From: Escherichia phage vB_EcoM_G17
DNA length: 64,000 nucleotides
Sequence record: MK327931.1
Reading direction: 5' to 3' (one strand)
Positions 50,751 to 64,000 of the stretch are shown here, one piece after another. The notes under the pieces were generated by a model, which was given only the letters and a program-made list of their open reading frames with translations, was not told the DNA's origin and ran no database searches. Every line of letters starts with the position of its first letter. Position 1 is the stretch's first letter. The position numbers and the translations under genes are program-made.

Positions 50751-50758
50751 AAACAATA

Positions 50759-51258: not shown

Positions 51259-51275
51259 AAGCTGTACTCCTTATA

Positions 51276-51488: not shown

Positions 51489-51505
51489 TTTTCTTTCCTC
51501 TCAGT

Positions 51506-51565: not shown

Positions 51566-51571
51566 TAGTTT

Positions 51572-51895: not shown

Positions 51896-51922
51896 TTATT
51901 GTTATCCTCTATTAAATTAATA

Positions 51923-52117
51923 TTACAGTTTATGAATCAATTCTTTATCTAAGCGATAGCGTACATTATTAATAGTAACGGCATTGTTTTTAATGCTACG
52001 CTGTACAGGTCCACCAGCAATAACAAATGTTGCTTTATTACCCCGAACAATGATAGCACTTCCAGGATTACCGAAATCATCTTGTACTAAAATACTTGAT
52101 AAGTTTTCCATTTTCAT
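51923..52117 (-). CDS. hypothetical small protein
   Basis: 64-aa ORF; contains a coding Chi at 52011-18. Confidence 0.7.
   Translation of the reverse strand: MKMENLSSILVQDDFGNPGSAIIVRGNKATFVIAGGPVQRSIKNNAVTINNVRYRLDKELIHKL
52011..52018 (-). other. Chi octamer on minus strand (coding, A-G-G codons)
   Basis: plus strand reads CCACCAGC. Confidence 0.85.
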
Positions 52118-52129
52118 TTCCTCTTAGTA

Positions 52130-52186
52130 GGGGAAGATGTTTCCCCTTGATGTAAGTACTATAACACTACTGGATAGTACTGTCAA
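52130..52186 (-). promoter_or_regulatory. promoter + 5' leader hairpin cassette
   Basis: -35 TTGACA 52181-86, 17-nt spacer, -10 TATAGT 52158-63; hairpin GGGGAA..TTCCCC 52130-46. Confidence 0.75.
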
Positions 52187-52192
52187 TACTTT

Positions 52193-52450
52193 TTATCTCA
52201 TAGATCTATGCCAACAATTACGCGGGGGACGTTTAAAAGTACTATCATGATCCTCCTGGCAAGTTATGCAGTACTTACATCCCTTAACAGCCTGGCGGCG
52301 ATTCTCAGGGATTTTATCGCCACAGTCGAGGCAATGTATCAGTGATTCTATTTGTGCGTTAATTTGCTTTCTAGCGTGGTTTACGGCGGCCTGAATCACT
52401 GCGTTAATCTCGTCTTGTTCGGCCCCGTCTTTCGCGAATCCTACAGCCAT
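52193..52450 (-). CDS. TraR/DksA-family C4 zinc-finger protein
   Basis: CLDCGDKIPENRRQAVKGCKYCITCQ matches the C-x2-C-x17-C-x2-C TraR/DksA signature with IP..RR. Confidence 0.75.
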   Translation of the reverse strand: MAVGFAKDGAEQDEINAVIQAAVNHARKQINAQIESLIHCLDCGDKIPENRRQAVKGCKYCITCQEDHDSTFKRPPRNCWHRSMR

Positions 52451-52647
52451 TATTTTAACCTTTTTCTATCATTAATTAATGCTTTCAGTACTATACTAAT
52501 AACTTGCAATGATTCATCAATGACTATAAAATTATTTTCTTTCATTAGATGATAGTTACCATTGATATTATATTCTAACGAGTACTGTTTACGTTTAATT
52601 TTTGATAATGTTTCTATTTGTTTTTGTACTGATTTCATGCTAATCAT
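52450..52647 (-). CDS. hypothetical small protein
   Basis: 65-aa ORF, 1-nt overlap with the TraR-like gene. Confidence 0.65.
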   Translation of the reverse strand: MISMKSVQKQIETLSKIKRKQYSLEYNINGNYHLMKENNFIVIDESLQVISIVLKALINDRKRLK

Positions 52648-52723
52648 TGTTAAACGTCCTGTAACGCATTCTAACGAGATAAACGGTTTAGTACTGGCAT
52701 TGTATAGGGTAATGAATTAAAGC

Positions 52724-52731
52724 CCACCAGC
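52724..52731 (-). other. Chi octamer on minus strand (intergenic, inside hairpin AGCCCAC..GTGGGCT)
   Basis: plus strand reads CCACCAGC. Confidence 0.85.
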
Positions 52732-52752
52732 GTTAACCAGTGGGCTATAATC

Positions 52753-52896
52753 TTACATCTTGCGGATAATCTTAACAGTATCTTTCACCGATTTACCGTC
52801 TTGCTGGCATTGCTCGATCATTGCGTATTGTTCTGCGGTCAGATCCTCGCCAGTTTTTGCCAGTACTGCGTCGATGAATGAATCCAGTGCGATCAT
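52753..52896 (-). CDS. small protein (47 aa), paralog of 56635..56787
   Basis: below track cutoff; own promoter; C-term CQQDGKSVKDTVKIIRKM vs CAKHGKTINETASIIDKL. Confidence 0.55.
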   Translation of the reverse strand: MIALDSFIDAVLAKTGEDLTAEQYAMIEQCQQDGKSVKDTVKIIRKM

Positions 52897-52940
52897 TTTA
52901 TTTCTCTCTTAGGTTAAGTTAACTACTGTTTATAAAACTT

Positions 52941-52968
52941 ATTATACAGTACTATCAAACGTTGTCAA
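52941..52968 (-). promoter_or_regulatory. sigma70 consensus promoter
   Basis: -35 TTGACA 52963-68, 16-nt spacer, -10 TATAAT 52941-46. Confidence 0.7.
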
Positions 52969-52995
52969 TATATTTAATAGTACTGGTAATATATT

Positions 52996-53175
52996 TTAGC
53001 GGTAATCGTCGTATGCTTTATTCACCTGGCGAATGTAACTTTCAAAGGCTTCGTCTACCGTTTCATACTCCCGAACATAATCACCATAGGAAACTACATA
53101 CATACCTTTTTGATCTTCAAACGTCATGATGATAGAATCCAGACCAACGATTTCAGTTTTTGCGATGATAGCCAT
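52996..53175 (-). CDS. small protein (59 aa)
   Basis: below track cutoff; AAGGAAT SD region; own promoter. Confidence 0.55.
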   Translation of the reverse strand: MAIIAKTEIVGLDSIIMTFEDQKGMYVVSYGDYVREYETVDEAFESYIRQVNKAYDDYR

Positions 53176-53211
53176 TTTTTTAATTCCTTAGTAGTGTAGT
53201 TGATAAAACTT

Positions 53212-53240
53212 ATTATGCCAGTACTATCAATCATTGTCAA
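53212..53240 (-). promoter_or_regulatory. sigma70-like promoter (duplicate of 56060-56088)
   Basis: -35 TTGACA 53235-40, 17-nt spacer, -10 CATAAT 53212-17. Confidence 0.7.
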
Positions 53241-53268
53241 TAGCTTTGATAGTACTGTGATAATATTT

Positions 53269-53481
53269 TTAGTTAATGATAGTCAGTGTAAAATTGTAAT
53301 CACCACAGCGATATAGCACGTTATTCCCAAATGTTCCAACTAATCGCACATCACACAAAACGCCGGTTTTTTCTTTTACTTCCTTGATACTTGTAACTCC
53401 TGTAATATCTTTATTAAAGTATTCATGATCTGAAAATAAAACTTGTTTTGCATTTTTTAATTTCGACCGGATATTAGCCAT
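53269..53481 (-). CDS. hypothetical small protein
   Basis: 70-aa ORF. Confidence 0.7.
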   Translation of the reverse strand: MANIRSKLKNAKQVLFSDHEYFNKDITGVTSIKEVKEKTGVLCDVRLVGTFGNNVLYRCGDYNFTLTIIN

Positions 53482-53501
53482 TTTGTTTTCTCTCTGTTAG
53501 T

Positions 53502-53561
53502 GGGGAGAAGTTTTTCTCCCCTTGATGTAAACTATTATACAGTACTATAATCTATTGTCAA
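53502..53561 (-). promoter_or_regulatory. promoter + 5' leader hairpin cassette
   Basis: -35 TTGACA 53556-61, 16-nt spacer, -10 TATAAT 53534-39; hairpin GGGGAGAA-gttt-TTCTCCCC 53502-21. Confidence 0.8.
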
Positions 53562-53576
53562 ACTATTTTTTTTATA

Positions 53577-53918
53577 TTATTCGAAATCTTCTGGACCGGA
53601 CTGATAATCATCTTCACCGTATGCACTTTCTAACTTCTCGCCAGTGTGGTCATCAGTTAGTGAGTCATCCTCATAGTTCACGTCTACGCCAGTGATGTAA
53701 AACTGGCTATCGTCTGGATCATTGAAATTAATTTTCTGTATGTTTACAATAACTGTATTGATGCCCAGGACACCGCCATCAGCCGTTACAAAGTACTGAT
53801 ATTTTTCACAACCGCCTGAATTGAAACCGTAATTAATTTCGGCCCGACCATCATTTAAACGCAGTGCCTGAGCGATGATTTCATTTTCAAAGTTAGATTG
53901 AGCAATTGAGATAGTCAT
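53577..53918 (-). CDS. hypothetical acidic protein
   Basis: 113-aa ORF. Confidence 0.7.
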   Translation of the reverse strand: MTISIAQSNFENEIIAQALRLNDGRAEINYGFNSGGCEKYQYFVTADGGVLGINTVIVNIQKINFNDPDDSQFYITGVDVNYEDDSLTDDHTGEKLESAYGEDDYQSGPEDFE

Positions 53919-53938
53919 GATTTGTTTCCTTATTACCA

Positions 53939-53997
53939 GGGGAAACCGTTTCCCCTTTCGATGTAAAACATTATACGCTTATTGAGATAGTTTGCAA
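53939..53997 (-). promoter_or_regulatory. promoter + 5' leader hairpin cassette
   Basis: -35 TTGCAA 53992-97, 16-nt spacer, -10 TATAAT 53970-75; hairpin GGGGAAAC-cg-TTTCCCC 53939-55. Confidence 0.75.
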
Positions 53998-54041
53998 GTA
54001 CTTTTTAAAAATAGTTTTCAGTACTCAAACATTATACAATA

Positions 54042-54122
54042 GATACACTCCTGCACCCTGTGGGCTAGTGAGCTATCTCTCAATGAATATATAATAGCAA
54101 AATGGCTGACCGAAGTCAACCA
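54042..54122 (-). repeat. terminator/promoter/box module, copy 4
   Basis: hairpin TGGCTGAC..GTCAACCA 54103-22 (compensatory changes vs other copies), -35 TTGACT 54114-19; 17-nt spacer; -10 TATTAT 54091-96; box 54042-66. Confidence 0.65.
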
Positions 54123-54128
54123 CTTTTT

Positions 54129-54266
54129 TCATTTATTTTTAGCTTTTAGAATCGCCGCCTTTCGTGTCATTCCTTGTTTGATGTACTCCTTTACTTTCGC
54201 TTTTTTAGCGTTTACCTTGTCTGCTTTCGTTTTAGGAGTACTGTAAATTATACCGTTAGGATTCAT
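54129..54266 (-). CDS. small basic protein (45 aa)
   Basis: below track cutoff; directly follows the stop of the upstream micro-ORF. Confidence 0.45.
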   Translation of the reverse strand: MNPNGIIYSTPKTKADKVNAKKAKVKEYIKQGMTRKAAILKAKNK

Positions 54267-54356
54267 TTAAATCACCATAAAGAATAGATAGGTTACTAAC
54301 AACGCCGCGATCAATGCACCGACCAGGGCCGAACTATAGTAAGCTAATGTTTTCAT
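54267..54356 (-). CDS. hydrophobic micro-protein (29 aa)
   Basis: MKTLAYYSSALVGALIAALLVTYLFFMVI; ATGA-coupled upstream. Confidence 0.4.
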   Translation of the reverse strand: MKTLAYYSSALVGALIAALLVTYLFFMVI

Positions 54357-54505
54357 TTTTTAGCCTGAAAATAATGTTTAATTTGTGCGGCGGTCAATGC
54401 ACAATTACGCAGGAAGTTTTCTGTATAACTGCGGCGAGTACTGAAAGAGAATTGACCTTTGCCGTTGCCGATAGTAACATCAAACCGAGCGTTGTATTGT
54501 TTCAT
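54353..54505 (-). CDS. small protein (50 aa)
   Basis: below track cutoff; AAGGAGAA SD; cassette upstream. Confidence 0.55.
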   Translation of the reverse strand: MKQYNARFDVTIGNGKGQFSFSTRRSYTENFLRNCALTAAQIKHYFQAKK

Positions 54506-54524
54506 TTTGATTCTCCTTGTATCA

Positions 54525-54586
54525 GGGGAGAACCATTTCCCCCCCCTCTATGTAAACAATTATACAGTACTGGAAACTAATTGCAA
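54525..54586 (-). promoter_or_regulatory. promoter + 5' leader hairpin cassette
   Basis: -35 TTGCAA 54581-86, 16-nt spacer, -10 TATAAT 54559-64; hairpin from 54525. Confidence 0.75.
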
Positions 54587-54589
54587 GTA

Positions 54590-54736
54590 CTATTTTTTAG
54601 ATTTACGCAAACTTTCTACCATCTCAGGAGTAAGGCCCGGCGGGTAGGAAACCACTTCATCCACAAAACGCAAAGGGAATACCCCAGCGAAAGGTGAACG
54701 TGCTTTCTTGTTAGTACTCTTTTTTGATGCTTTCAT
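54590..54736 (-). CDS. small protein (48 aa)
   Basis: below track cutoff; cassette upstream; MKASKKSTNKKARSPFAG... Confidence 0.5.
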   Translation of the reverse strand: MKASKKSTNKKARSPFAGVFPLRFVDEVVSYPPGLTPEMVESLRKSKK

Positions 54737-54755
54737 TTCATATTCCTTAATTAGT

Positions 54756-54815
54756 GGGGAGAATCATTTCTCCCCTTCATGTAAAACATTATACAGTACT
54801 GAAAACTAATTGCAA
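54756..54815 (-). promoter_or_regulatory. promoter + 5' leader hairpin cassette
   Basis: -35 TTGCAA 54810-15, 16-nt spacer, -10 TATAAT 54788-93; hairpin GGGGAGAA-tcat-TTCTCCCC 54756-75. Confidence 0.8.
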
Positions 54816-55015
54816 GTACTATTTGAAAGTAAATGCTCATACGCTGCATTAACTACGTTTTCAATAACCGACTGTACAGAAAGATCCCCCACGTCCCGGC
54901 TATAGTAGAAATCGCTTACAGTGGTGTCATCGTATGCAAATACTTTACCAGGTACGGCATCAATCACATACATATTAACCTTTAAGATGTCGATCTTATC
55001 CTGTACAGTAAGCAT
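54806..55015 (-). CDS. hypothetical small protein
   Basis: 69-aa ORF. Confidence 0.65.
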   Translation of the reverse strand: MLTVQDKIDILKVNMYVIDAVPGKVFAYDDTTVSDFYYSRDVGDLSVQSVIENVVNAAYEHLLSNSTCN

Positions 55016-55020
55016 ATTAA

Positions 55021-55293
55021 TTAACCTTTTAAGTACTGGCTTAAGTAGTCTTGTTGATCTTCGGTGATTGCAGCCATCTTCCCTAGTACTGGATTGATGA
55101 TATAATCCCCTGTAACGTCCTGTAACGCATTCTCAGGCGGTTTAACGGCTGGGGTAGCCATAGCCATTGCCTGGACTTGTTCGACGCTGTAACGCTCATA
55201 AAGGCGGCATTCTTCCGGTGTTAACATAGCATCAGTACGCTTCATCGGTTTAATGATGCTTTCGATCTCATTCAGTACTTGATTAACGTTCAT
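55021..55293 (-). CDS. hypothetical small protein
   Basis: 90-aa ORF. Confidence 0.7.
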   Translation of the reverse strand: MNVNQVLNEIESIIKPMKRTDAMLTPEECRLYERYSVEQVQAMAMATPAVKPPENALQDVTGDYIINPVLGKMAAITEDQQDYLSQYLKG

Positions 55294-55344
55294 GGTATAA
55301 TCCCCAATATAAGCGGCCTGAATCGACCGCTAACGATGTTTTGA

Positions 55345-55614
55345 TTAATAGGTGTATGGTTGACGTTCAAACAATGATTGCACGTTGTACGCCCCACTAA
55401 TGGGCTTTGCTGGTAAATCAATTTTATATTGTTCACGCTTAAAGATAATAAAACGGCAATTGTTTTTTACATCAAAATTGATTGAACGTTCCAGGAGTTT
55501 TCCATCGTGTACAAATACAAGATAACCGCTTGCTACTTGTTTTGTAGTACTGGTTGCAACCATAGACCGACGAACATGCGTACCTGCATCGATTAAAGTA
55601 CTGATATTTTTCAT
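55345..55614 (-). CDS. hypothetical small protein
   Basis: 89-aa ORF. Confidence 0.7.
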   Translation of the reverse strand: MKNISTLIDAGTHVRRSMVATSTTKQVASGYLVFVHDGKLLERSINFDVKNNCRFIIFKREQYKIDLPAKPISGAYNVQSLFERQPYTY

Positions 55615-55652
55615 TATACGATCCTCTTAAGTTAATTTAATTTCTTTCCCCT

Positions 55653-55689
55653 ATGCAGACACTATATCAAAGTATCTGCATAAAGTAAA
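55653..55689 (-). promoter_or_regulatory. promoter bracketed by a palindromic operator-like repeat
   Basis: -35 TTTACT 55684-89, 17-nt spacer, -10 TATAGT 55661-66; 7-bp arms ATGCAGA (55653-59) / TCTGCAT (55675-81) flank the -10. Confidence 0.55.
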
Positions 55690-55694
55690 GCTAA

Positions 55695-56018
55695 TTAAAG
55701 ATCTTTTTTGCGTTTAACATTCTGTACAGTACAATGCAACGGGATATTAAGATCATTGCACACACGAGTAAGGGAGGTTTCATCAGTATTAAGCCCGTCT
55801 ACTGATTCCTTTAAGAGAGATAACGCCGTTTGTTGATATGCATCTTCATAGCCATAAGTAAATGATTCAACCGCCAGATCATTCAAACCGTTATCCAGTT
55901 CAACGCTTACATGACAAGAATGATAAGTATTGCCATATGAATCAGTCCAACGTTTACCGTCAACATTGATTGCACGGATTGCAGCCAGGGAAACGGTGTT
56001 AATGATAGTTTTAGCCAT
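55695..56018 (-). CDS. hypothetical protein, paralog of 49577..49900
   Basis: shared RWTDSYGNTYHSCHVS...FTYGY...VKRKKDL. Confidence 0.75.
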   Translation of the reverse strand: MAKTIINTVSLAAIRAINVDGKRWTDSYGNTYHSCHVSVELDNGLNDLAVESFTYGYEDAYQQTALSLLKESVDGLNTDETSLTRVCNDLNIPLHCTVQNVKRKKDL

Positions 56019-56059
56019 TTTTGTATTCCTTAAATTAATATGTTGTCTTGATAAAATCT

Positions 56060-56088
56060 ATTATGCCAGTACTATCAAACTATGTCAA
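56060..56088 (-). promoter_or_regulatory. sigma70-like promoter
   Basis: -35 TTGACA 56083-88, 17-nt spacer, -10 CATAAT 56060-65. Confidence 0.7.
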
Positions 56089-56107
56089 TAGTACTGTGAT
56101 AATATTT

Positions 56108-56251
56108 TTACTTACTTTTTGCTTTCTTTGCTGCTTCCACCTGGTCGGCCCATTCTTTACCCCATACTTGTAAATTATAATGGTACTGGCAAAGAGCAAC
56201 GCCCCGCTTTAAACCCGTAATAGATTTCTGACCACATTGACAAGTTTTCAT
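56108..56251 (-). CDS. small Cys-rich protein (47 aa)
   Basis: below track cutoff; MKTCQCGQKS...CQYH; cassette upstream. Confidence 0.55.
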   Translation of the reverse strand: MKTCQCGQKSITGLKRGVALCQYHYNLQVWGKEWADQVEAAKKAKSK

Positions 56252-56268
56252 TTTAGTTTCCTTGTAGT

Positions 56269-56328
56269 GGGGAGAACCATTTCTCCCCTTGATGTAATGT
56301 ATTATACTTTATTCGATTTACTTTGCAA
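56269..56328 (-). promoter_or_regulatory. promoter + 5' leader hairpin cassette
   Basis: -35 TTGCAA 56323-28, 16-nt spacer, -10 TATAAT 56301-06; hairpin GGGGAGAA-ccat-TTCTCCCC 56269-88. Confidence 0.8.
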
Positions 56329-56337
56329 GTACTTTTT

Positions 56338-56565
56338 TTAATTTAATTCATCCAGGCAAAGGATACGCTCAACGCCCAAATCAGTTAAACTAATCGACGG
56401 CACTTGATAGGTTTCAATGTATGCTACACTTGCCCACTGACCGAACTCATTAACGGCCCAGGTATTCATTGCATTTTGCAATTCCGCACCTTCCTTGTTG
56501 GTAATTACAGCAACAGTAGAAGAATTACCAGTAGTACCAGATACGCGAGTGATTACGATAGCCAT
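56338..56565 (-). CDS. hypothetical small protein
   Basis: 75-aa ORF. Confidence 0.7.
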   Translation of the reverse strand: MAIVITRVSGTTGNSSTVAVITNKEGAELQNAMNTWAVNEFGQWASVAYIETYQVPSISLTDLGVERILCLDELN

Positions 56566-56597
56566 TTTTTAATTCCTATTCAGTAGTTGATGTATGT

Positions 56598-56626
56598 ATT
56601 ATGTCAGTACTTAAAACTATTGTCAA
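56598..56626 (-). promoter_or_regulatory. sigma70-like promoter
   Basis: -35 TTGACA 56621-26, 17-nt spacer, -10 CATAAT 56598-603. Confidence 0.7.
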
Positions 56627-56634
56627 ACTATTTT

Positions 56635-56787
56635 TTAAAGTTTATCAATGATTGATGCCGTTTCATTGATAGTCTTGCCGTGTTTTGCACACGCGATAAC
56701 TGCTTTAAATTCCTTTGATGACCAATCTTTCTTGCTGCATACTGACATTACTTGTAAAGTAAAACAATCCAGTTCATAAGTATTCAT
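56635..56787 (-). CDS. small protein (50 aa), paralog of 52753..52896
   Basis: below track cutoff; own promoter. Confidence 0.55.
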   Translation of the reverse strand: MNTYELDCFTLQVMSVCSKKDWSSKEFKAVIACAKHGKTINETASIIDKL

Positions 56788-56832
56788 CTTTAAATCCTCA
56801 GTTAGTTAAGGTGTCTCGCCTTGATGTAATTA

Positions 56833-56860
56833 ATTATACGCTAATCTCTTAATCGTGCAA
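56833..56860 (-). promoter_or_regulatory. sigma70-like promoter
   Basis: -35 TTGCAC 56855-60, 16-nt spacer, -10 TATAAT 56833-38. Confidence 0.65.
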
Positions 56861-56925
56861 GTACTTTTTATTACTTTTTGCAAAATACTTTAAACGCTCT
56901 CAATCGCATTCTAACGACCTTAACT

Positions 56926-56933
56926 CCACCAGC
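56926..56933 (-). other. Chi octamer on minus strand (intergenic)
   Basis: plus strand reads CCACCAGC. Confidence 0.85.
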
Positions 56934-57782: not shown

Positions 57783-58082
57783 TTATAAACAGTTAATTAC
57801 TCCGGTGTGCGTTACTTTCTCAGTATCCATAACCGTGACCGATCCACGCTTAGTACTGGCATCATAATAAATTGTGGTGCTACCGTTTTCGTCTTCTTCA
57901 TGGAACGGGCCGTTTTTAAATGCTTCCGGCTGGATCTCTAAATCCTTTAATACAATCTCGCCAGTTCTTTCATCGGTCATTGCAACAGTGCACTGAATGA
58001 ATTTTTCATTACTTACATCTAATGACGCATTAACAGCGAAAGAGGAAACAGATAAAGCCAGGGCGATGATTGCAATTTTCAT
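57783..58082 (-). CDS. secreted/periplasmic small protein
   Basis: N-term signal peptide MKIAIIALALSVSSFAVNA. Confidence 0.75.
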   Translation of the reverse strand: MKIAIIALALSVSSFAVNASLDVSNEKFIQCTVAMTDERTGEIVLKDLEIQPEAFKNGPFHEEDENGSTTIYYDASTKRGSVTVMDTEKVTHTGVINCL

Positions 58083-58102
58083 TTGATTATCCTTAGTTAC
58101 CA

Positions 58103-58161
58103 GGGGGAACCGCTCCCCCTTGCTATGTAAAATATTATACAGTACTAAAAACTAATTGCAA
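58103..58161 (-). promoter_or_regulatory. promoter + 5' leader hairpin cassette
   Basis: -35 TTGCAA 58156-61, 16-nt spacer, -10 TATAAT 58134-39; hairpin GGGGGAA-ccg-CTCCCCC 58103-19. Confidence 0.75.
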
Positions 58162-58166
58162 GTACT

Positions 58167-58403
58167 TTATGATTTTTTATAAAACATTTCGGCAGTGATA
58201 TTTTTACCCGTTGGCTGTACTTTATCCAGAATTTTTTGATGCCCTGGCCGTCCAAATGAATATGATCCGTAAACCGTAAACCAGTAGTTACCCTCAGTGT
58301 TTACATGTACAGCACAATAGGGAACGCCCCGCGATTCATCACTAGTAAAGTGTGCTACCGTTCCCGTTACATTCGAAGTCGTTGATTTGATTTGTTCAAG
58401 CAT
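58167..58403 (-). CDS. hypothetical small protein
   Basis: 78-aa ORF. Confidence 0.7.
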   Translation of the reverse strand: MLEQIKSTTSNVTGTVAHFTSDESRGVPYCAVHVNTEGNYWFTVYGSYSFGRPGHQKILDKVQPTGKNITAEMFYKKS

Positions 58404-58424
58404 TTTCTTATTCCTTAGTTACCA

Positions 58425-58477
58425 GGGGAACCGCTCCCCTATGCAAAACATTATACGCGTTTAAAAACTAATAGCAA
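58425..58477 (-). promoter_or_regulatory. promoter + 5' leader hairpin cassette
   Basis: -35 TTGCTA 58472-77, 16-nt spacer, -10 TATAAT 58450-55; hairpin 58425-39. Confidence 0.7.
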
Positions 58478-58510
58478 GTATTTTAATAAAAAGTATTTGG
58501 AAAATAATTG

Positions 58511-58539
58511 TTGACAAGTGCATCCAGTACTGGCATAAT
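58511..58539 (+). promoter_or_regulatory. plus-strand sigma70 promoter, divergent from 58450-58477
   Basis: -35 TTGACA 58511-16, 17-nt spacer, -10 CATAAT 58534-39. Confidence 0.65.
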
Positions 58540-58545
58540 TACTAC

Positions 58546-58654
58546 ATCAAGACGAAACAGTCACTAACCCACCGGGTGCATAGATCCGTCTATTAAATGA
58601 TTCAGTACTGAAAAAGTAACGGGGAGTTATTATCTCCCCGCGTTGTTATTTTGT
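58546..58654 (+). ncRNA. candidate ~110-nt plus-strand small RNA
   Basis: own promoter; hairpin GAC-gaaaca-GTC; box AACCCACCGGGTGCATAG 58566-83; ATAGA-tccg-TCTAT; terminal hairpin CGGGGAG-7nt-CTCCCCG 58620-40 followed by a U-rich tail; no ORF. Confidence 0.4.
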
Positions 58655-58867
58655 AAGGTATAAACAGAAGTCACCTTTATTTGCTACGCCGCCAGTGTAA
58701 CGCGATGAATAGTTAGAAATATCTTGTACTTCTGCTATTACCAGTGTATCATCATTCATTTCGTCGCAGAAGCAAACGGCTGGATCTTTTACGCCGATAT
58801 TGTCGGCATGTTCCCGCATAGATTTAACCAGTGCTTCCAGTTGAGAAAGAGTAGTGATATTAGCCAT
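58646..58867 (-). CDS. hypothetical small protein
   Basis: trimmed to MANITTLSQ. Confidence 0.7.
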   Translation of the reverse strand: MANITTLSQLEALVKSMREHADNIGVKDPAVCFCDEMNDDTLVIAEVQDISNYSSRYTGGVANKGDFCLYLTK

Positions 58868-58886
58868 TGTATTTTCCTCATTACCA

Positions 58887-58945
58887 GGGAGAACCATTTC
58901 TCCCCTCTATGTAAACTATTATACAGTACTGAAAACTAATTGCAA
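58887..58945 (-). promoter_or_regulatory. promoter + 5' leader hairpin cassette
   Basis: -35 TTGCAA 58940-45, 16-nt spacer, -10 TATAAT 58918-23; hairpin 58887-904. Confidence 0.75.
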
Positions 58946-58953
58946 GTACTTTT

Positions 58954-59157
58954 TTAATTTAATTGCTTTAAAACATACTCAAAGACACCACGCACATCAT
59001 TGATCATCGCCTGGCGGTTAGCAGGTAACGCATCAGGATCGCCACTATCCCAGGCATTGATAAAACTCCCCAAATCATGATAGATTTTATTCTGTAAGCC
59101 GATTAACTGTAATTCTTTTTCTTCAAGCTCTTTGATGCGGTCGATTAAATCACTCAT
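58954..59157 (-). CDS. hypothetical small protein
   Basis: trimmed to MSDLIDRIKE after GAGGA. Confidence 0.65.
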   Translation of the reverse strand: MSDLIDRIKELEEKELQLIGLQNKIYHDLGSFINAWDSGDPDALPANRQAMINDVRGVFEYVLKQLN

Positions 59158-59174
59158 TAGATAATCCTCAGTAC

Positions 59175-59459
59175 TTAACTGTAAGATCCGCAACGGTCGC
59201 AGTAGTGCCCGTCCTCGTCATCGTCAACGAATTGACCGACGAAATGATCTACTTTCGCTTTCAGGTTATTATAATCGTTTTCTACTTCATTTAAACGCTT
59301 CTGGTAGTATTCCAGTGCTTTAAGATATGCCGCATCAGCAGTTTTCTCCTGCATAGCTAAATTCATGCCACGCGTTTCATCGTACAGCCAAAAACCATCG
59401 GTGCACTGGCTAATAGATAATGACTTGCTTAGTACTGTATAGTTAATTACTTTACCCAT
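59175..59459 (-). CDS. hypothetical small protein
   Basis: 94-aa ORF; C-term HYCDRCGSYS. Confidence 0.7.
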   Translation of the reverse strand: MGKVINYTVLSKSLSISQCTDGFWLYDETRGMNLAMQEKTADAAYLKALEYYQKRLNEVENDYNNLKAKVDHFVGQFVDDDEDGHYCDRCGSYS

Positions 59460-59477
59460 TAGATAATCCTCAGTAAA

Positions 59478-59537
59478 GGCGGGAACTATTCCCCGCCTCG
59501 ATATAAAGTATTATACGTTAATCTAACTACAATGCAA
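59478..59537 (-). promoter_or_regulatory. promoter + 5' leader hairpin cassette
   Basis: -35 TTGCAT 59532-37, 16-nt spacer, -10 TATAAT 59510-15; hairpin GGCGGGAA-cta-TTCCCCGCC 59478-97. Confidence 0.75.
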
Positions 59538-59551
59538 GTACTTTTTAAATT

Positions 59552-59818
59552 TTATAATCCTTTTACTGCATCAGGTGCGACTACTCCATCAATGTATTGA
59601 ACATCGTTTTCAACTTCACGGGCGGCATCATTCAGCAGATCAAAATTAAATTCCATTTCTTCCAGATCATCGAAATCAGGCTCATAACCATTAATTGTTG
59701 AATAAGTCCAAGTACCTTTTTCATAAGTTACGACACTTACATCAGGGAAGAAATCTTGCACATGATCCATCGCATCCCGAACCAATTGATGTGCAGTTGT
59801 GATATTTAAAGTTTTCAT
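59552..59818 (-). CDS. hypothetical small protein
   Basis: 88-aa ORF. Confidence 0.7.
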   Translation of the reverse strand: MKTLNITTAHQLVRDAMDHVQDFFPDVSVVTYEKGTWTYSTINGYEPDFDDLEEMEFNFDLLNDAAREVENDVQYIDGVVAPDAVKGL

Positions 59819-59839
59819 TTTGTTGCCCTTTTAGTGTGA

Positions 59840-59899
59840 GCGGGGAACCACTCCCCGCCTCGATGTAAAGTATTATACGCTTTTAAACTTAGTTTGCAA
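59840..59899 (-). promoter_or_regulatory. promoter + 5' leader hairpin cassette
   Basis: -35 TTGCAA 59894-99, 16-nt spacer, -10 TATAAT 59872-77; hairpin GCGGGGAA-cca-CTCCCCGC 59840-58. Confidence 0.75.
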
Positions 59900-59911
59900 G
59901 TACTTTTTAAA

Positions 59912-60523
59912 TTAATATGCGATTGATTCTACTACGTCATCAATAACATTGAATTGATATTCGTTACCCTCAATCAGTGCCGTAATGTTTTCAGTAGTGA
60001 ATTGATCCTCATATGCATTCTCTAAATCACGGTACAACTTGCGGGATAATTCACGAATAGTTTCAGTGAGTAGTTCCTCAAGCTCATTAACTAACGTTTC
60101 TTGTTTTGCGGTTAAATCAGTGTAAGCCGATTCAATGTACCCGCTTACAGTATTCTCATGCGAGTAGTGGGAGTGAGAACGCTTTACACTCATCGCCAAA
60201 TCATCTTCATTCAGCAGGTGACGGATTGAGCGATACTTAGTTAATGCTCTTACCTTGCGTAAAAACTTCACTGCGTCAACGTGGTCAGTACTGATTGATG
60301 CACCGTCACCCTGGGACCAAAAACCACTGAATTGTATTTCAGCTTCATTAATGCCATATTCCGGTAGTACTGTTTCTTTATAGTATTCAATTTCACTTTC
60401 AGAAAAATAATTGTCGTTTGAGTTTTTTTCACGTTCCCGAACCAGTTCGATAGCTGACGTTTTTTGTTCTGCGTTCAATTCAGAAAAATCCATAACGAAA
60501 GTAGTAGTAGTGATAGTTTTCAT
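59912..60523 (-). CDS. hypothetical protein
   Basis: 203-aa ORF; motif FSGFWSQGDGASIS, family not identified. Confidence 0.75.
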   Translation of the reverse strand: MKTITTTTFVMDFSELNAEQKTSAIELVREREKNSNDNYFSESEIEYYKETVLPEYGINEAEIQFSGFWSQGDGASISTDHVDAVKFLRKVRALTKYRSIRHLLNEDDLAMSVKRSHSHYSHENTVSGYIESAYTDLTAKQETLVNELEELLTETIRELSRKLYRDLENAYEDQFTTENITALIEGNEYQFNVIDDVVESIAY

Positions 60524-60555
60524 TTTGTAACCCTCATTCAGTAGTTGATGTAAGT

Positions 60556-60583
60556 ATTATACGCTTTTAAAAACATTTGTCAA
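60556..60583 (-). promoter_or_regulatory. sigma70-like promoter (proximal of a tandem pair)
   Basis: -35 TTGACA 60578-83, 16-nt spacer, -10 TATAAT 60556-61. Confidence 0.7.
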
Positions 60584-60593
60584 ACTATTTTAT

Positions 60594-60664
60594 CAGGGGA
60601 GTTTTTCGTGTGCCTTACTCCTGGGCTACTTAACGGGAAGTTACTTATTTCGTTCCCCGTCCTG
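60594..60664 (-). promoter_or_regulatory. conserved ~70-nt leader element, copy 2
   Basis: near-copy of 50606-50674. Confidence 0.45.
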
Positions 60665-60673
60665 ATGTAAAAC

Positions 60674-60701
60674 ATTATACGCCTTTAAACATAGTTTGCA
60701 A
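60674..60701 (-). promoter_or_regulatory. sigma70-like promoter (distal of a tandem pair)
   Basis: -35 TTGCAA 60696-701, 16-nt spacer, -10 TATAAT 60674-79. Confidence 0.7.
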
Positions 60702-60746
60702 GTACTTTTTAAAAATAGTTTTCAGTACTGAATATTTAAAAAAGTA

Positions 60747-60810
60747 TTGACAGCATTATCAAGTACTGGCATAATATACCCCATGACAACAGCTAACCCA
60801 CCGGGTGCAC
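60747..60810 (+). promoter_or_regulatory. plus-strand promoter followed by a box (plus sense)
   Basis: -35 TTGACA 60747-52, 17-nt spacer, -10 CATAAT 60770-75; box AACCCACCGGGTGCAC 60795-810. Confidence 0.6.
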
Positions 60811-60842
60811 AATTGTAACTATACTAAACTACTTTTTCTATA

Positions 60843-60919
60843 GATACACTCCCGCACCCTATGGGCTACGGCTTATCTGCCAATGAATACATTATGCCAG
60901 TACTGACAAAATAAGTCAA
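60843..60919 (-). promoter_or_regulatory. minus-strand promoter followed by a box, convergent with 60747-60810
   Basis: -35 TTGACT 60914-19, 17-nt spacer, -10 CATAAT 60891-96; box AGCCCATAGGGTGCGGGAGTGTATC 60843-67. Confidence 0.6.
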
Positions 60920-60949
60920 TACCGGCAATTGTAAAGATTTGTAAACTGC

Positions 60950-61180
60950 TTATACTGCAATCGCGTCCAGGCTATAATAATAATAAGTGCCGTATTGGTG
61001 TACTTTATTACCTTTTATTTCAGTACTGAATGAATCCGAACGGTTTGCATATGATGTTAATTTAAAGTACTTTGATTTGCTGATACGTTGCCATACACCG
61101 CAGATCCGCTGTAAGTAAGTAGTTTTATTCGTGGTAGTATCTTTTACAGTTTTAACTTCAGTCATATACATATTAGTCAT
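60950..61180 (-). CDS. hypothetical small protein
   Basis: 76-aa ORF. Confidence 0.7.
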   Translation of the reverse strand: MTNMYMTEVKTVKDTTTNKTTYLQRICGVWQRISKSKYFKLTSYANRSDSFSTEIKGNKVHQYGTYYYYSLDAIAV

Positions 61181-61201
61181 TTTTATTACTCCAGGTTATA
61201 G

Positions 61202-61260
61202 GCGGGAAGAGTTCCCGCTCTCGATGTAAAACATTATACGCCATTAAACATAGTTTGCAA
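61202..61260 (-). promoter_or_regulatory. promoter + 5' leader hairpin cassette
   Basis: -35 TTGCAA 61255-60, 16-nt spacer, -10 TATAAT 61233-38; hairpin GCGGGAA-gag-TTCCCGC 61202-18. Confidence 0.75.
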
Positions 61261-61267
61261 GTACTTT

Positions 61268-61534
61268 TTATTCAAGTACTGCAATCTTTTTAGTACGGTA
61301 CACGGTCACGCGGTTGCCCTTTCGGTCGAGCTTTATTTCTACCACTCGACGCGATACACTATCAGGACTTTTCAACGCCGCTAACCAGTACTGTAATGAT
61401 CTGGCGGTACTACGCTTTATAATGGCCCAACGTTTACCACGTTCCGATTGTACGCCCATATCTTTAAACGTTGCCCCGTCCTGGCGTGCGGCGATCCGAG
61501 CTTGTTCACGCGTCGCAAAATACTTAATATTCAT
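61268..61534 (-). CDS. hypothetical protein, paralog of 49086..49490
   Basis: trimmed to MNIKYFATREQARIAARQDGATFKDMG; C-term DRKGNRVTVYRTKK. Confidence 0.75.
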   Translation of the reverse strand: MNIKYFATREQARIAARQDGATFKDMGVQSERGKRWAIIKRSTARSLQYWLAALKSPDSVSRRVVEIKLDRKGNRVTVYRTKKIAVLE

Positions 61535-61619
61535 GCTGTTGCCCTTATCGTTGGTGTATGAATAAAACACTATTATAAAGTACTATCGCAAAAAATGATA
61601 GTACTTTAAATAAATTCTA

Positions 61620-61859
61620 TTACATTCCAACCATTGCAGCACGGATCGCAGTAGTGCTATATTTGAATCCGTCCGGCGTTTTATCTTGTCCAGTCTGTTC
61701 TAAAAATAACATCATATGACGGGCCGCATCATTACGATTAGTATTGGCGGCAATAAAGTCCTGGGCCAACCGGTATAATGATTCATCGTTATTAATCCAA
61801 AGGCTTACATTCCAATGAGTTTTGTTTTTGTGACCTAAGAACATTTTTGATTTAGCCAT
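61620..61859 (-). CDS. hypothetical small protein
   Basis: trimmed to MAKSKMFLGHK. Confidence 0.7.
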   Translation of the reverse strand: MAKSKMFLGHKNKTHWNVSLWINNDESLYRLAQDFIAANTNRNDAARHMMLFLEQTGQDKTPDGFKYSTTAIRAAMVGM

Positions 61860-61879
61860 TTTTTTAATCCTCTTATATA

Positions 61880-61938
61880 GTGGGGAACTATTCCCCACCT
61901 GATGTAAAACATTATACGCTTTTAAACATAGTTTGCAA
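61880..61938 (-). promoter_or_regulatory. promoter + 5' leader hairpin cassette
   Basis: -35 TTGCAA 61933-38, 16-nt spacer, -10 TATAAT 61911-16; hairpin GTGGGGAA-cta-TTCCCCAC 61880-97. Confidence 0.75.
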
Positions 61939-61952
61939 GTACTTTATTAAAC

Positions 61953-62315
61953 TTATTCGTAAATTTTGCCACTGTCAGCCCATACCAGGAAACGAGGCAT
62001 ATTATCCCATGCATCTTGTTTTAAATTTAAACCGTGTAATACTTCTGTACTTTCCATTCCTGGTACTGGTTTACTATACACCGCGAAATTTTCGCCCATA
62101 TACTGATAAACCATCGTCAAATCACTGGCGATCATCTTATGGATCATCGCATCAAGCATCACGGTAGCGGCGTATTGTTCACGCTTAAGCGGCAACATTG
62201 TAATAAGTTCCCGATAAGCTGAAATGTGAATTTTTACCGTTTCAGCCGGAAGACCTTTCATCTCTTCACGGAAGTTGACCAGGTTAGAAATAATTTTATT
62301 GATTTGGGTCGCCAT
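61953..62315 (-). CDS. hypothetical protein
   Basis: trimmed to MATQINKII. Confidence 0.7.
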   Translation of the reverse strand: MATQINKIISNLVNFREEMKGLPAETVKIHISAYRELITMLPLKREQYAATVMLDAMIHKMIASDLTMVYQYMGENFAVYSKPVPGMESTEVLHGLNLKQDAWDNMPRFLVWADSGKIYE

Positions 62316-62339
62316 CGTATTAATCTCTTTTAAAGTGTA

Positions 62340-62398
62340 GCGGGAAGTGTTCCCGCTCTCGATGTAAAACATTATACGCCTTTAAACATAGTTTGCAA
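62340..62398 (-). promoter_or_regulatory. promoter + 5' leader hairpin cassette (rightmost protein-coding unit)
   Basis: -35 TTGCAA 62393-98, 16-nt spacer, -10 TATAAT 62371-76; hairpin GCGGGAA-gtg-TTCCCGC 62340-56. Confidence 0.75.
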
Positions 62399-62634
62399 GT
62401 ACTTTCTACATGTACTTTTAAAATAGTTTTCTTTCTATATAGGGGAACTATCATTCAGTACTATTATTCAGTACTGAATCAACCAAATCACTACTACACC
62501 CCATAAAACGGCCTCAGACGCATTCTAACGCATTAATACACCTAAGCTATACATTTGCACCATTCCAATCATTCCAGGGCTTTACGGGCCGTTTAAACGC
62601 GTTAAATTATTTTCAATTATTTTGTTTTTAGCTA

Positions 62635-62720
62635 TTGACTCAGTACAGAAAAAGCGTATAATTACTACATAGACGCGAGAAAGCGGAAACCCCAGAGGGT
62701 GCGGAATTACGCCCAAAATT
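62635..62720 (+). promoter_or_regulatory. plus-strand promoter followed by a box
   Basis: -35 TTGACT 62635-40, 16-nt spacer, -10 TATAAT 62657-62; hairpin CGC-gagaaa-GCG; box ACCCCAGAGGGTGCGGAATTACGCCCAAAATTC. Confidence 0.55.
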
Positions 62721-62736
62721 CAAGATATAAAAAAAG

Positions 62737-62816
62737 GATACACTCCCGCACCCTAGCAGGTAAACGCACTTTCTCAGTACTGAAATATAGTACCATAGTC
62801 CGGCCCAGGATAGCAA
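62737..62816 (-). promoter_or_regulatory. minus-strand promoter followed by a box, convergent with 62635-62720
   Basis: -35 TTGCTA 62811-16, 18-nt spacer, -10 TACTAT 62787-92; box CCTGCTAGGGTGCGGGAGTGTATCC 62737-60. Confidence 0.5.
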
Positions 62817-62850
62817 GCAAATTAATTAAAACTTTTTTGCTTCCAGGGTA

Positions 62851-62936
62851 TTGCTTTATTTTTTCAGTACTGTATAATAGTTCCATCAAGTCGAGAAAGA
62901 CTCAAGCCCACCGGGTGCATAGTTACGCCCAAAATT
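62851..62936 (+). promoter_or_regulatory. plus-strand promoter followed by a box
   Basis: -35 TTGCTT 62851-56, 16-nt spacer, TGnTATAAT 62873-78; hairpin GTC-gagaaa-GAC; box AGCCCACCGGGTGCATAGTTACGCCCAAAATTC 62905-36. Confidence 0.55.
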
Positions 62937-62974
62937 CAGTACTGAAAAAATTTTTAAAAATATCCGTCCAGGCC

Positions 62975-63003
62975 GTTGACATTGCCCCCAGTTTATAAGA
63001 TAA
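62975..63003 (+). promoter_or_regulatory. plus-strand sigma70-like promoter
   Basis: -35 TTGACA, 17-nt spacer, -10 GATAAT; followed by GGGGAAACTATCCCC hairpin near 63041-55. Confidence 0.45.
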
Positions 63004-63101
63004 TGATTCCAGATTCAGAAAAATCTAACTCCAGATACTGCGGGGAAACTATCCCCACGCGGTAGGGGAACTATTGGAAAAAACAAAATAAAATTTTGAT
63101 T

Positions 63102-63215
63102 TAGCCGTCTATACTTCCAGACGTGTAACCATCTAGCCGTTTAGCCGTCCAAACGTCTAGCCATCCAGAAATCTAGCCGTCTAGATGGATAGCCATCTTT
63201 ACTTCCAGACTTCTG
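63102..63215. repeat. iteron-like short direct repeats plus small palindromes
   Basis: (C)TAGCC(G/A)T(C/T) at ~63102, 63133, 63142, 63157, 63173, 63190; ACTTCCAGAC twice; palindromes AGATGG-atag-CCATCT and CCAGA-ct-TCTGG. Confidence 0.6.
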
Positions 63216-63395
63216 GAGGGCTAGACATATCTACGCCCAAAATCCATCCAGGGTAACTACACCCAAAATCCGTCAGTACTATACCATAGATCTATCTTTT
63301 GAAAGGGAGTATTCAGTACTGCCATCATAGCCCTCACTATGTTACCCTAGGAGGATGAAGACCATCATGTAGTACTGAATACTGTTAGAGGGAAT

Positions 63396-63415
63396 CCACC
63401 AGCACAAGCTGGTGG
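63396..63415. other. palindromic Chi pair (one Chi on each strand)
   Basis: CCACCAGC-acaa-GCTGGTGG, exact. Confidence 0.85.
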
Positions 63416-63607
63416 TATAATGCTTTAGATTAAAATCAGTACTGACACCATTCTGTTAATATCAGTACTGTTATTACGATTTTCATATGAGGTTCAAAAA
63501 GATGTACCACCACAGGAGGAACTATCTTTTCTGTACTGTCTCACGACAGGAGGTAGAGTAAATGAATTGTTCGCAGCAACTCATCACCCCTTGAAGCTAT
63601 GTAGAAC

Positions 63608-63635
63608 ATTATACAGTACTGAATCATAATGTCAA
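63608..63635 (-). promoter_or_regulatory. sigma70 consensus promoter with no ORF downstream
   Basis: -35 TTGACA 63630-35, 16-nt spacer, TGnTATAAT 63608-13; leftward transcript has no ORF above ~20 aa. Confidence 0.6.
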
Positions 63636-64000
63636 TAGCTTTCTTTCATTATTCAGTACTGATATTCTTGAGAACTACCCGACTACAAACATCATTATAT
63701 CCCACAAATCATAAACGTCCCAACGTAAATTTCAACTTTCGAAGATCCAACTTTTATTTCATAGGTACTCCAAAATTTTTAGGATCGAGATTTAGGATGG
63801 AGTACTAACCAACTTTTTGCTGGAGCCTCAAGGGGTAATTGAATTTTACCCCGAAGGGTAAAAGGGTAATTGTAATTAAGGTGAAAGTAATAATTCAGTA
63901 CTAATCATTGCGTGATTACTTTTGATTACATTTGATGTAATTTGCAAAATGGAAAAGGAGCTTGGAAACTACAAAGTACGGCAGACTTCCTCTGCCTACT

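Follow-up and report, generated by a model that had tools for sequence, protein, structure and literature searches.

A non-coding leader at the left genome end of an Asteriusvirus jumbo coliphage, with a conserved leader RNA and a predicted host-repressor operator array

We analysed the gene-free right end (positions 62400–64000) of a 64,000-nucleotide stretch of DNA from Escherichia phage vB_EcoM_G17 (sequence record MK327931.1); the whole stretch is called the window below. An earlier note, made from the letters alone, had described this end as repeat-dense and free of open reading frames (ORFs), and as a candidate origin, terminus or regulatory hub. The region is the outermost 1.6 kb, or non-coding leader, of the left direct terminal repeat (DTR) of the phage. 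We propose, with a probability of about 0.55, that it is a cis-acting genome-end control region comprised of three layers: elements for end processing, host promoters with structured transcripts, and sixteen phased 8-bp units predicted to be occupied by the host repressor MetJ bound to S-adenosylmethionine (SAM). It would thus be a DTR-phage terminal control region whose content has not been described before: a conserved leader RNA followed by operator arrays for host repressors that are exchanged between genera.

The leader of the left direct terminal repeat

A megablast search with positions 62300–64000 matched 45 phage records, 34 of them over the full length, all from Asteriusvirus-type jumbo coliphages of ~350 kb. 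The closest relative of this segment is Sharanji, with 99.9–100% identity. By these matches, the phage is an Asteriusvirus (a 121Q/PBECO4-like jumbo coliphage). Window position 64000 is the exact start position of six matched records. Specifically, bases 1–120 of fEgEco12, read as the reverse complement, match the final 120 nt of the window without a difference, and vB_Ec-M-J, which has one additional heptamer, otherwise matches the window tail from its base 1 onward. For fEgEco12, PhageTerm located the termini and restriction digests confirmed them, giving a DTR of 20,993 bp (PMC13070987), and the DTR of Sharanji is 20,668 bp (PMC11895373). Counting 20,668 bp back from 64000 leads to 43333, where the boundary ...GGGTAACCT|TAGCGACTTC is identical, to the base, to the PhageTerm boundary of fEgEco12 at 20,993. 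The GC content steps from ~0.30–0.34 to ~0.38–0.41 at this inner boundary (window 43000–44000), and the boundary sequence CCT|TAGC is common to the window, fEgEco12 and the distant fENko-Kae01. Given the tail and boundary matches, the first 64 kb of the virion DNA, reverse-complemented, make up the window, and two features follow (here and below, strands are given where assigned):

43333–64000: direct terminal repeat, 20,668 bp, placed by the boundary match, the Sharanji DTR length and the GC step
63981–64000: physical left terminus, with the genome-orientation start AGTAGGCAGAGGAAGTCTGCC and an imperfect palindrome GGCAGA..TCTGCC

The comparison confirms base 64000 as the physical left terminus and first base of packaged DNA, a placement that rests on the DTR-resolved relatives fEgEco12 and vB_Ec-M-J. 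The terminus or packaging region that the earlier note offered as one option is therefore borne out, since window base 64000 is base 1 of both of these relatives; the termini that it proposed to locate are given by the relatives' PhageTerm- and digest-mapped ends, and the edge of the region is the genome end. Additionally, GACTTC lies 11 nt from the end in the window, in Serratia BF and in XbC2, and a MAFFT alignment places these termini in register. A common cut-site motif at both DTR boundaries was considered and dropped, as the two resemble each other only weakly (CTA|AGTAG versus CCT|TAGC, with GAAGTC near both).

The leader lies upstream of the first gene (61953–62372, minus strand), and its description as ORF-free stands. 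Four mechanical ORFs, of 99, 60, 59 and 58 aa, can be read in 62400–64000, but stops or frameshifts interrupt every one of them in two or more of six Asteriusvirus relatives, and the 99-aa ORF is without a Pfam match. On these grounds, hidden genes in the leader were rejected. fEgEco12 annotates the 99-aa ORF (g614; L004 8760–9059) in the right DTR copy only, though the two copies are identical. For annotation this matters, as several GenBank records place spurious genes over the leader; several Salmonella SD-series and WPEC records annotate 5–11 'hypothetical proteins' there. An Rfam search of 58000–64000 gave no covariance-model match at an E-value ≤1, and ARAGORN reported no tRNA or tmRNA. 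The mean identity of the leader to the six Asteriusvirus relatives is 0.89. A leader that is ~89% identical across the genus is under constraint, and the comparison with relatives that the earlier note recommended thus finds the region conserved. In phage engineering, the leader would be a cis element to keep.

Conserved promoters, RNA and end elements

Pieces of the leader are conserved at the DNA level across Rak2-like genera, as found by a sensitive search. The genera compared were Alcyoneusvirus (RaK2, Muenster), Eneladusvirus (Serratia BF, Erwinia pEa_SNUABM, Yersinia fHe-Yen9), Mimasvirus (GAP32, CBB, XbC2) and the Kae01/Munch group. In records starting at a genome end, the conserved pieces lie within ~1.4 kb of that end. 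Alignment of six leaders, together with motif-anchored extractions, gave a collinear plan. From the terminus inward, the order is the cut site, the TGATTAC heptamers, Island C, the inward promoter and the Chi pair, continued by the GTACACCCAAAAT box, the array at 63103–63230, the P3 leader, and then P2 and P1, each with an Island A copy. The elements in the window are:

63910–63945: TGATTAC heptamer repeats, 55–90 nt inside the cut, with a period of 10 over 63913–63936
63759–63825: Island C, an inverted repeat GGTACTCC/GGAGTACT around two TTTAGGAT repeats
63608–63635, minus strand: inward consensus sigma-70 promoter, TTGACA-16-TATAAT, 12/12 matches, ~370–390 nt from the terminus
63396–63415: palindromic Chi pair, also an 8-bp hairpin, with CCACCAGC at 63396 and GCTGGTGG at 63408
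63232–63269, plus strand: two of the four TACRCCCAAAAT boxes, with the (A)GTACACCCAAAAT copy kept across genera
63103–63230: sixteen tandem 8-bp met-box-like units (AGCCGTCT, AGACGTGT, AAACGTCT, ...), a predicted MetJ-SAM array
63074–63091, plus strand: mini-ORF TTG GAA AAA ACA AAA TAA behind the Shine-Dalgarno-like AAGGGGA, probably translated
63011–63064, plus strand: structured P3 leader RNA (helix 1, 63011–63013/63024–63026; helix 2, 63036–63045/63053–63064)
62976–63004, plus strand: P3, outward sigma-70 promoter, TTGACA-17-GATAAT, 11/12 matches, in every Rak2-like genus examined
62846–62950, plus strand: P2 (extended -10, CAGTACTGTATAAT) and a second, diverged Island A copy (repeat family D2, 71% over 79 nt)
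62659–62760, plus strand: Island A, 3' of P1, a quasi-palindrome GGGTGCGG...CCGCACCC with a small hairpin CGC/GCG
62635–62662, plus strand: P1, outward sigma-70 promoter, TTGACT-16-TATAAT, 11/12 matches, conserved across genera

All elements listed in the earlier note were found where it had placed them, and they are non-random. The plus- and minus-strand promoters that had been noticed at 62975 and 63608 are both present, as P3 and the inward promoter, and Kae01 and BF carry inward promoters at similar distances from the end. The RNA predicted to start at P3 is structured, with strong covariation. From 13 sequences covering all genera, RNAalifold derives a fold with two hairpins within the first 55 nt of this transcript. 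Across the 13 base pairs, 99.4% of cells are standard pairs, and 9 of the 13 pairs are changed on both sides. The covariation is 0.542, compared with 0.161 in shuffles (reached in 0/500) and at most 0.105 in slid registers. Helix 2 is 100% paired in the 13 sequences and includes six pairs with changes on both sides. At one pair, 11 sequences have U.G and the other two have G.U; since such wobble pairs would mismatch on the opposite strand, the structured molecule is the outward (plus-strand) transcript. The mini-ORF behind the hairpins starts with ATG or TTG in 13/13 sequences and is 3–14 codons long, and its AAGGGGA is conserved.

Island A shares 94% identity over 52 nt with Kae01 and 88% over 77 nt with XbC2. 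Its loop holds TACGCCCAAAAT in the window and a Fur box in other genera. Here 94.2% of cells are paired and the covariation is 0.264 versus 0.123 in shuffles (reached in 0/500), with three pairs changed on both sides and G.U pairs on the plus strand, a weaker support than for the P3 leader. Island A is thus a candidate structured RNA; alternatively, it may consist of paired protein-binding sites, since its arms are inverted copies of one motif. One arm, AGGGTGCGGGAGTGTATC, occurs at 62753, 60859 and 47501 on the minus strand, three places in the DTR, and its partner arm, TGCACCCGGTGGGTTAG, recurs in early intergenic regions. An IMG/VR scan for Island A returned only four already-known isolates.

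Four copies of TACRCCCAAAAT had been noticed, and they are indeed present (62708, 62924, 63232 and 63258) and non-random: 0.05 are expected, and four were reached in 0/100 shuffles. The pair of CA(C/G)(C/G)ACAGGAGG repeats seen earlier is found at 63503–63519 and 63537–63553. The reported high density of CAGTACTG is likewise borne out, with 63 copies in the window versus 0.79 expected, nine of which fall in the last 1.6 kb, ~6.5 times denser than elsewhere. Copies lie, for example, at 46619, 47113, 54794, 58924 and 63614. At early promoters, CAGTACTG fills the spacer just 5' of the -10 (TTGACA-N8-CAGTACTG-TATAAT), with AGTACT adjoining the -35 (AGTACTTGCAA). Many copies are inside coding DNA, and seven stand alone in the leader. 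Paralogous coding repeats at 18000–28000, with the motif ...CAGTACTGGA(A/T)GG.CCGTGGGATAGTGAAGA.TA.TACTTCCAG reading roughly SVLDGPWDSEEYYFQ, make up part of the excess. SlmA, which has an AGTACT core, was considered as a possible protein for TCAGTACTGA and set aside, because CAGTACTG proved to be part of phage promoter spacers. Small early genes of the DTR (58000–62400, e.g. 62340–62398 and 61880–61940) each have their own cassette of a TTGCAA-16-TATAAT promoter, a GGGGAACTATTCCCC-type 5' hairpin, a Shine-Dalgarno site and an ATG. The P3 unit resembles such a cassette with the ORF swapped for the array.

Near the end, the TGATTAC repeats picked out by the earlier note are accompanied by three further GTAATCA/GTAGTCA copies ~130–170 nt outside the cut in the concatemer. 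The heptamers are candidate genus-specific recognition repeats for the terminase small subunit. Island C is kept in all Rak2-like genera, 54–240 nt from the terminus, with 93% identity over 43 nt to fENko-Kae01 and 82% over 67 nt to XbC2, and is a candidate pac or cleavage-positioning site. Natural candidates for terminase recognition would be the cut site, the heptamers that flank it and Island C, given where they lie and how well they are conserved. A possible parallel is the P1 pac site, where short repeated oligomers lie on both sides of the terminase cut; it differs in its methylation-sensitive TGATCA/G hexamers and headful packaging, whereas the ends are fixed here.

The palindromic Chi pair is present where the earlier note saw it, at 63396 and 63408, against ~0.009 expected in 1.6 kb. 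It is common to Kae01/Munch, where it scores terminator-like. The plus-strand Chi at 63408 lies 593 nt from the left end and is oriented toward RecBCD entering there. Of the Chi octamers in the window, 10 of 11 are in the DTR (~0.1–0.2 expected per strand per 64 kb), and eight on the minus strand, at 44695–56926, face the right genome end. With Chi placed at both ends, RecBCD from either end would meet Chi quickly.

Together, the conserved promoters, the covarying leader RNA and operator-like arrays kept across genera support the regulatory hub that was one of the options put forward earlier.

The 16-unit array and its predicted binding protein

The earlier note had read the repeats at the centre of the leader as an iteron-like cluster of about six. 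The repeats are real, and the cluster is larger and more regular than described, with ~16 strictly 8-nt-periodic units; the iteron identity is not supported. The units are 8 bp in strict phase rather than 17–22 bp, they fit the MetJ matrix, and Fur boxes take their place in other genera. MetJ binds as homodimers to 8-bp boxes, needs at least two adjacent boxes, and uses SAM as co-repressor (PMC3228920, PMC2775130). We scored the array with the published symmetrised MetJ matrix and thresholds (PMC3228920), which are one quarter of the consensus score for a single box and 12.58 bits for the total. As a positive control, 20 kb around E. coli metJ gave the metJ/metB operator (31.2 bits) and the metF operator (24.9 bits) as top runs, with four boxes detected in each. 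In the 64-kb window the top run, at 63103–63230, reaches 106.5 bits and has 14 of its 16 boxes above threshold; no other run exceeds 14.3 bits, and shuffled 1.6-kb sequences reach at most 18.6 bits.

The degeneracy of the units also follows that of natural sites. For 83 pooled phage boxes, the correlation of base frequencies with 832 natural half-boxes is r = 0.916 in register, and none of the other seven registers exceeds 0.02; a caveat is that C at position 3 is over-represented in the phage boxes. Phage and natural boxes alike lack T at position 3 and A at position 6. The array has 16 boxes in the window, BF, XbC2 and Kaldavass, which represent four genera, and 19 in fEgEco12; length differences within Asteriusvirus are +8, +16 and +24 nt. 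The units are heterogeneous, and their order is partly kept between BF and XbC2, which argues for substitution under constraint rather than slippage. The host, E. coli, has metJ. The array shares with E. coli met operators the tandem, strictly phased 8-bp boxes, of which at least two exceed the matrix thresholds, the CTAG at junctions and the position-by-position degeneracy. It differs from them in that the E. coli operators adjoin met genes, while the phage array has 16 boxes, is off-promoter and AGCC-biased, and stands at the end of a virulent phage. Natural met operators have 2–5 boxes. TrpR, which has tandem CTAG sites, was considered for the array and set aside, as its flanks do not fit.

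The same layout could be read as a replication origin. The early promoter, the structured purine-rich transcript and an A/T-rich stretch (63075–63100) would then provide an R-loop primer of the T4/ColE1 type, and the array would bind an initiator or accessory protein. The conserved succession of promoter, structured RNA, GGTAGGGGAA purine run, A/T-rich tract and repeat array is in keeping with this, as are the T4-type replication proteins of Rak2-like phages (PMC5259590). Among the features of an iteron origin, only the A/T-rich tracts are present. The 8-bp repeats are not iteron-sized, and the array is swapped for Fur boxes in sister genera with the same replication proteins. Furthermore, the leader contains no DnaA box with ≤1 mismatch, neighbouring ORFs contain no initiator-like domain in Pfam, and the cumulative GC skew shows no inflection. 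We consider an origin very unlikely.

The distribution of such arrays bears on what binds them. Kae01, Munch, Muenster and RaK2 have no met boxes in the slot that follows this leader RNA; Fur-like repeats such as GAGAATCATTATCATTCTC and GATAATCATTATT, with 14–17/19 consensus matches, stand there instead, and 8–10 hits at ≥13/19 fall in the terminal 1.4 kb versus ~1 in shuffles. Fur-like boxes in the Island A loop were found by scan in Kae01, BF and Muenster, and similar sequences are visible in Yen9 and Hallingskeid, whereas a consensus scan found none in the window leader. Among 50,697 phage records, two independent searches found met-box arrays in three phage groups, i.e. Rak2-like phages, T5-like Demerecviridae and Ermolevavirus, with 9–28 boxes in the latter two. 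In many entries numbered from a genome end, the arrays are at or near the record start or end. Specifically, Aeromonas phage AhSzq-1 has 28 boxes (221 bits) in untranslated DNA close to its A1/A2 pre-early genes; Vibrio phage Pontus has 17 boxes beside three perfect TTATCCACA DnaA boxes and two LexA-like CTGTATATTTATACAG boxes (468–900); Providencia phage PR1 has nine near-consensus boxes in both DTR copies; and Ermolevavirus PGT2 has a 9-box array 38–109 nt from the end. The Pontus array is preceded by many GGATTTGCACC repeats, which resemble the GTGCAAATCCGAC repeats of T5. Searching IMG/VR for three boxes in a row yielded a few further contigs, from uncultivated viruses, which carry 10–37 boxes. 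One of them, 3300031658_004036 (17,025 bp), has 37 consecutive AGATGTCY boxes at 7257–7560 (360 bits), near the end of the fetched stretch. No comparable array was found in 5,426 complete E. coli genomes. The hosts of array-bearing phages belong to Enterobacterales, Vibrionales and Aeromonadales, with one exception. MetJ is confined to five gammaproteobacterial orders, among which are these three (PMC3228920).

Several observations weigh against MetJ. The array does not lie over a promoter; it begins ~90 nt 3' of the P3 start, and the inward promoter is ~370 nt upstream of it. A one-sided C at position 3 (AGCC) occurs in half of the phage boxes, compared with 10% of natural boxes. The exception in host range is XbC2, whose record is labelled as a Xanthomonas phage, and the restriction to host orders rests on only about three independent phage lineages. 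A bacterial scan with AGMCNTCT x3 gave many 8-mer microsatellites with the array's units in taxa without MetJ, so unit resemblance alone is weak evidence; this was a single scan with a poorly chosen three-unit pattern, to be taken as a caution only. The dispersed microsatellites, such as (AGCCGTCY)n and (AGCCATCY)n, came from Gemmatimonadaceae, Schleiferiaceae, a Flavobacteriales metagenome-assembled genome and Anaerolineae, among others, and are of low diversity and often at contig ends. Finally, a phage ribbon-helix-helix protein could be encoded, since the domain screen covered 19 of the ~50 ORFs of the DTR and the remaining 290 kb of the genome lie outside the window.

These points lend themselves to a reading in which the array is bound by a phage protein (a ribbon-helix-helix, terminase small subunit or end-binding protein) or acts as RNA, for example as C-rich phased YC dimers for Rho loading, and the likeness to met boxes is coincidental. 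The asymmetric AGCC bias, the similar 8-mer repeats in bacteria without MetJ, and the predicted transcription of the array from P3 would all be accommodated, and plasmid ribbon-helix-helix proteins (omega, ParG) bind tandem arrays of 7–8-bp units. Such a reading would nevertheless require three unrelated phage groups each to have a protein of the same specificity, a second coincidence for the Fur-box arrays in the same slot, and a degeneracy that happens to track the MetJ matrix at each position. No shared candidate protein emerged from homologue searches for MetJ, A1 and A2 or from Pfam on 19 DTR ORFs: tblastn of E. coli MetJ against the 50,697 phage records returned host-contaminated entries only, the 64-kb window gave nothing better than E = 0.27 for MetJ, T5 A1, T5 A2 and A2 homologues, and the 19 ORFs showed no ribbon-helix-helix or other DNA-binding domain. 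A phage protein or an RNA function is thus unlikely.

The arrays might instead serve as a transcription-factor sponge. Present twice per genome and multiplied by replication, they would titrate MetJ (Fur elsewhere) and derepress the methionine/SAM or iron regulons, and nothing would hang on their location near the end. What the sequences show for MetJ and Fur sites applies equally to this proposal, the 16–37 boxes per array far exceed the need of an operator, and the array is not over a promoter. A sponge leaves unexplained why arrays stand at or near ends, or in terminal untranslated regions, in three unrelated phage groups, and why the position after the same conserved promoter and leader RNA is constant. 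T5-like phages degrade host DNA within minutes, by the pre-early functions of T5, so that derepressing host genes would be pointless in them. Titration as the purpose of the arrays seems rather improbable.

Matrix-like degeneracy, a constant array length, the range of hosts and the replacement by Fur boxes jointly make the case for MetJ, and on this basis we give binding of the array by MetJ slightly better than even odds. In the control region that we propose, terminase would be guided by the cut site, by Island C and by the TGATTAC heptamers that flank the junction, and the correctly oriented Chi would engage RecBCD. Host RNA polymerase would enter at one consensus promoter directed inward to the early genes and at three conserved promoters directed outward, of which P3 would yield the structured leader RNA and the tiny ORF, and P1 and P2 the Island A element. 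The 16 phased met boxes directly 3' of the P3 leader would be a landing pad for a host repressor. More speculatively, holo-repressors already in the cell (MetJ-SAM here, Fur-Fe in relatives) could coat the array on entry, and the coated array would act as a gate, set by the host SAM status, on P3 transcripts, on inward transcripts crossing the array, and possibly on processes coupled to leader transcription at the DNA end. Fur boxes in the same slot of sister genera would report iron status instead.

Known counterparts and wider distribution

The closest known object is the terminal untranslated repeat region of the T5 family, which contains the injection stop signal (iss), and the closest motif is the met operator. 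The left-repeat untranslated regions of T5 are likewise gene-free, dense in repeats and palindromes, and inside a long DTR of a virulent phage. Both regions are also better conserved than neighbouring ORFs and carry boxes, predicted ones in the present case, for host DNA-binding proteins, and T5-like relatives carry the same met-box arrays. DnaA boxes have been described in the T5 injection-stop region (bioRxiv 10.1101/866236), and the annotated signal also contains two Fur-box-like repeats (9653–9712) with 15–16/19 consensus matches. The T5 region differs in its position at the inner edge of the repeat, 9–10 kb from the entering end, and in its paired DnaA boxes; the leader analysed here forms the outermost 1.6 kb of the left repeat, and no DnaA box is found in it.

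By analogy with T5, the leader could control entry. The DTR would be a first-step-transfer segment, and the protein-bound leader would pause or anchor the DNA until the early proteins of the DTR are made. An untranslated repeat region with predicted host-factor boxes does lie in the DTR. AhSzq-1, Pontus and Providencia PR1 have the same met-box arrays by their A1/A2 pre-early genes. In Pontus, DnaA and LexA-like boxes stand beside the array, and the T5 iss itself has Fur-like and DnaA boxes. The eight DTR Chi facing the right end would fit entry of the right copy first, with the leader at its inner edge. On the other side, two-step transfer has never been reported for Rak2-like phages, and neither paired DnaA boxes in the leader nor an A1/A2 homologue detectable in the window was found. 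The injection control that the earlier note offered as an option is a live analogy, though we regard a T5-type injection stop as improbable.

Two other counterparts are instructive. The left end of T7 is a first-entering non-coding leader with strong host promoters A0–A3, one of which fires toward the end, and SRL short repeats of obscure role. It resembles the present region as a non-coding end leader with host promoters and short-repeat arrays, and the 9-box array near the end of Ermolevavirus PGT2 adds to the likeness; the T7 repeats, in contrast, are of the CCTAAAG type and irregularly spaced, and the terminal repeat is 160 bp versus 20.7 kb here. Sites for host regulators are known from other virulent phages, such as the Spo0A boxes and parS of phi29, and LexA or Fur boxes elsewhere. 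In those phages, as proposed here, pre-existing host repressors sense the host state with no phage protein needed; the present case differs in the predicted regulators (MetJ and Fur), in the long homotypic arrays and in their location inside terminal repeats, for which we found no earlier report.

Taking the cassette types together, MetJ boxes here and Fur, LexA-like or DnaA boxes in relatives, we tentatively suggest a broader idea, which at present seems more doubtful than the proposal for this leader. DTR-packaging virulent phages may carry interchangeable host-repressor operator cassettes in their untranslated genome ends, which would be occupied by resident repressors and gate entry, early transcription or replication by host nutritional state, as a protein-free sensing layer common to jumbo, T5-like and T7-like phages. 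The ends of Rak2-like jumbo phages have already been mapped, and we found no description of the content of their terminal non-coding DNA. A literature search for MetJ or met boxes with phage, or for Fur, MetJ or DnaA boxes with terminal repeats, returned no description of such arrays, and the Asteriusvirus and CBB papers are silent on the leader (PMC13070987, PMC11895373, PMC5259590). The arrays offer a testable handle on what repeat-dense terminal untranslated regions do, including the T5 injection stop signal, and on whether strictly lytic phages read the host metabolic state through host repressors.

Other DTR ORFs gave a few domain matches. Those at 51572–51895 and 61620–61898 match DUF7247 and DUF7249, respectively, and weak matches to DUF1033 and HVO_A0114 were also seen. 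A 213-aa ORF (47581–48222, minus strand) has a weak, sub-threshold Pkinase match (E = 0.003).

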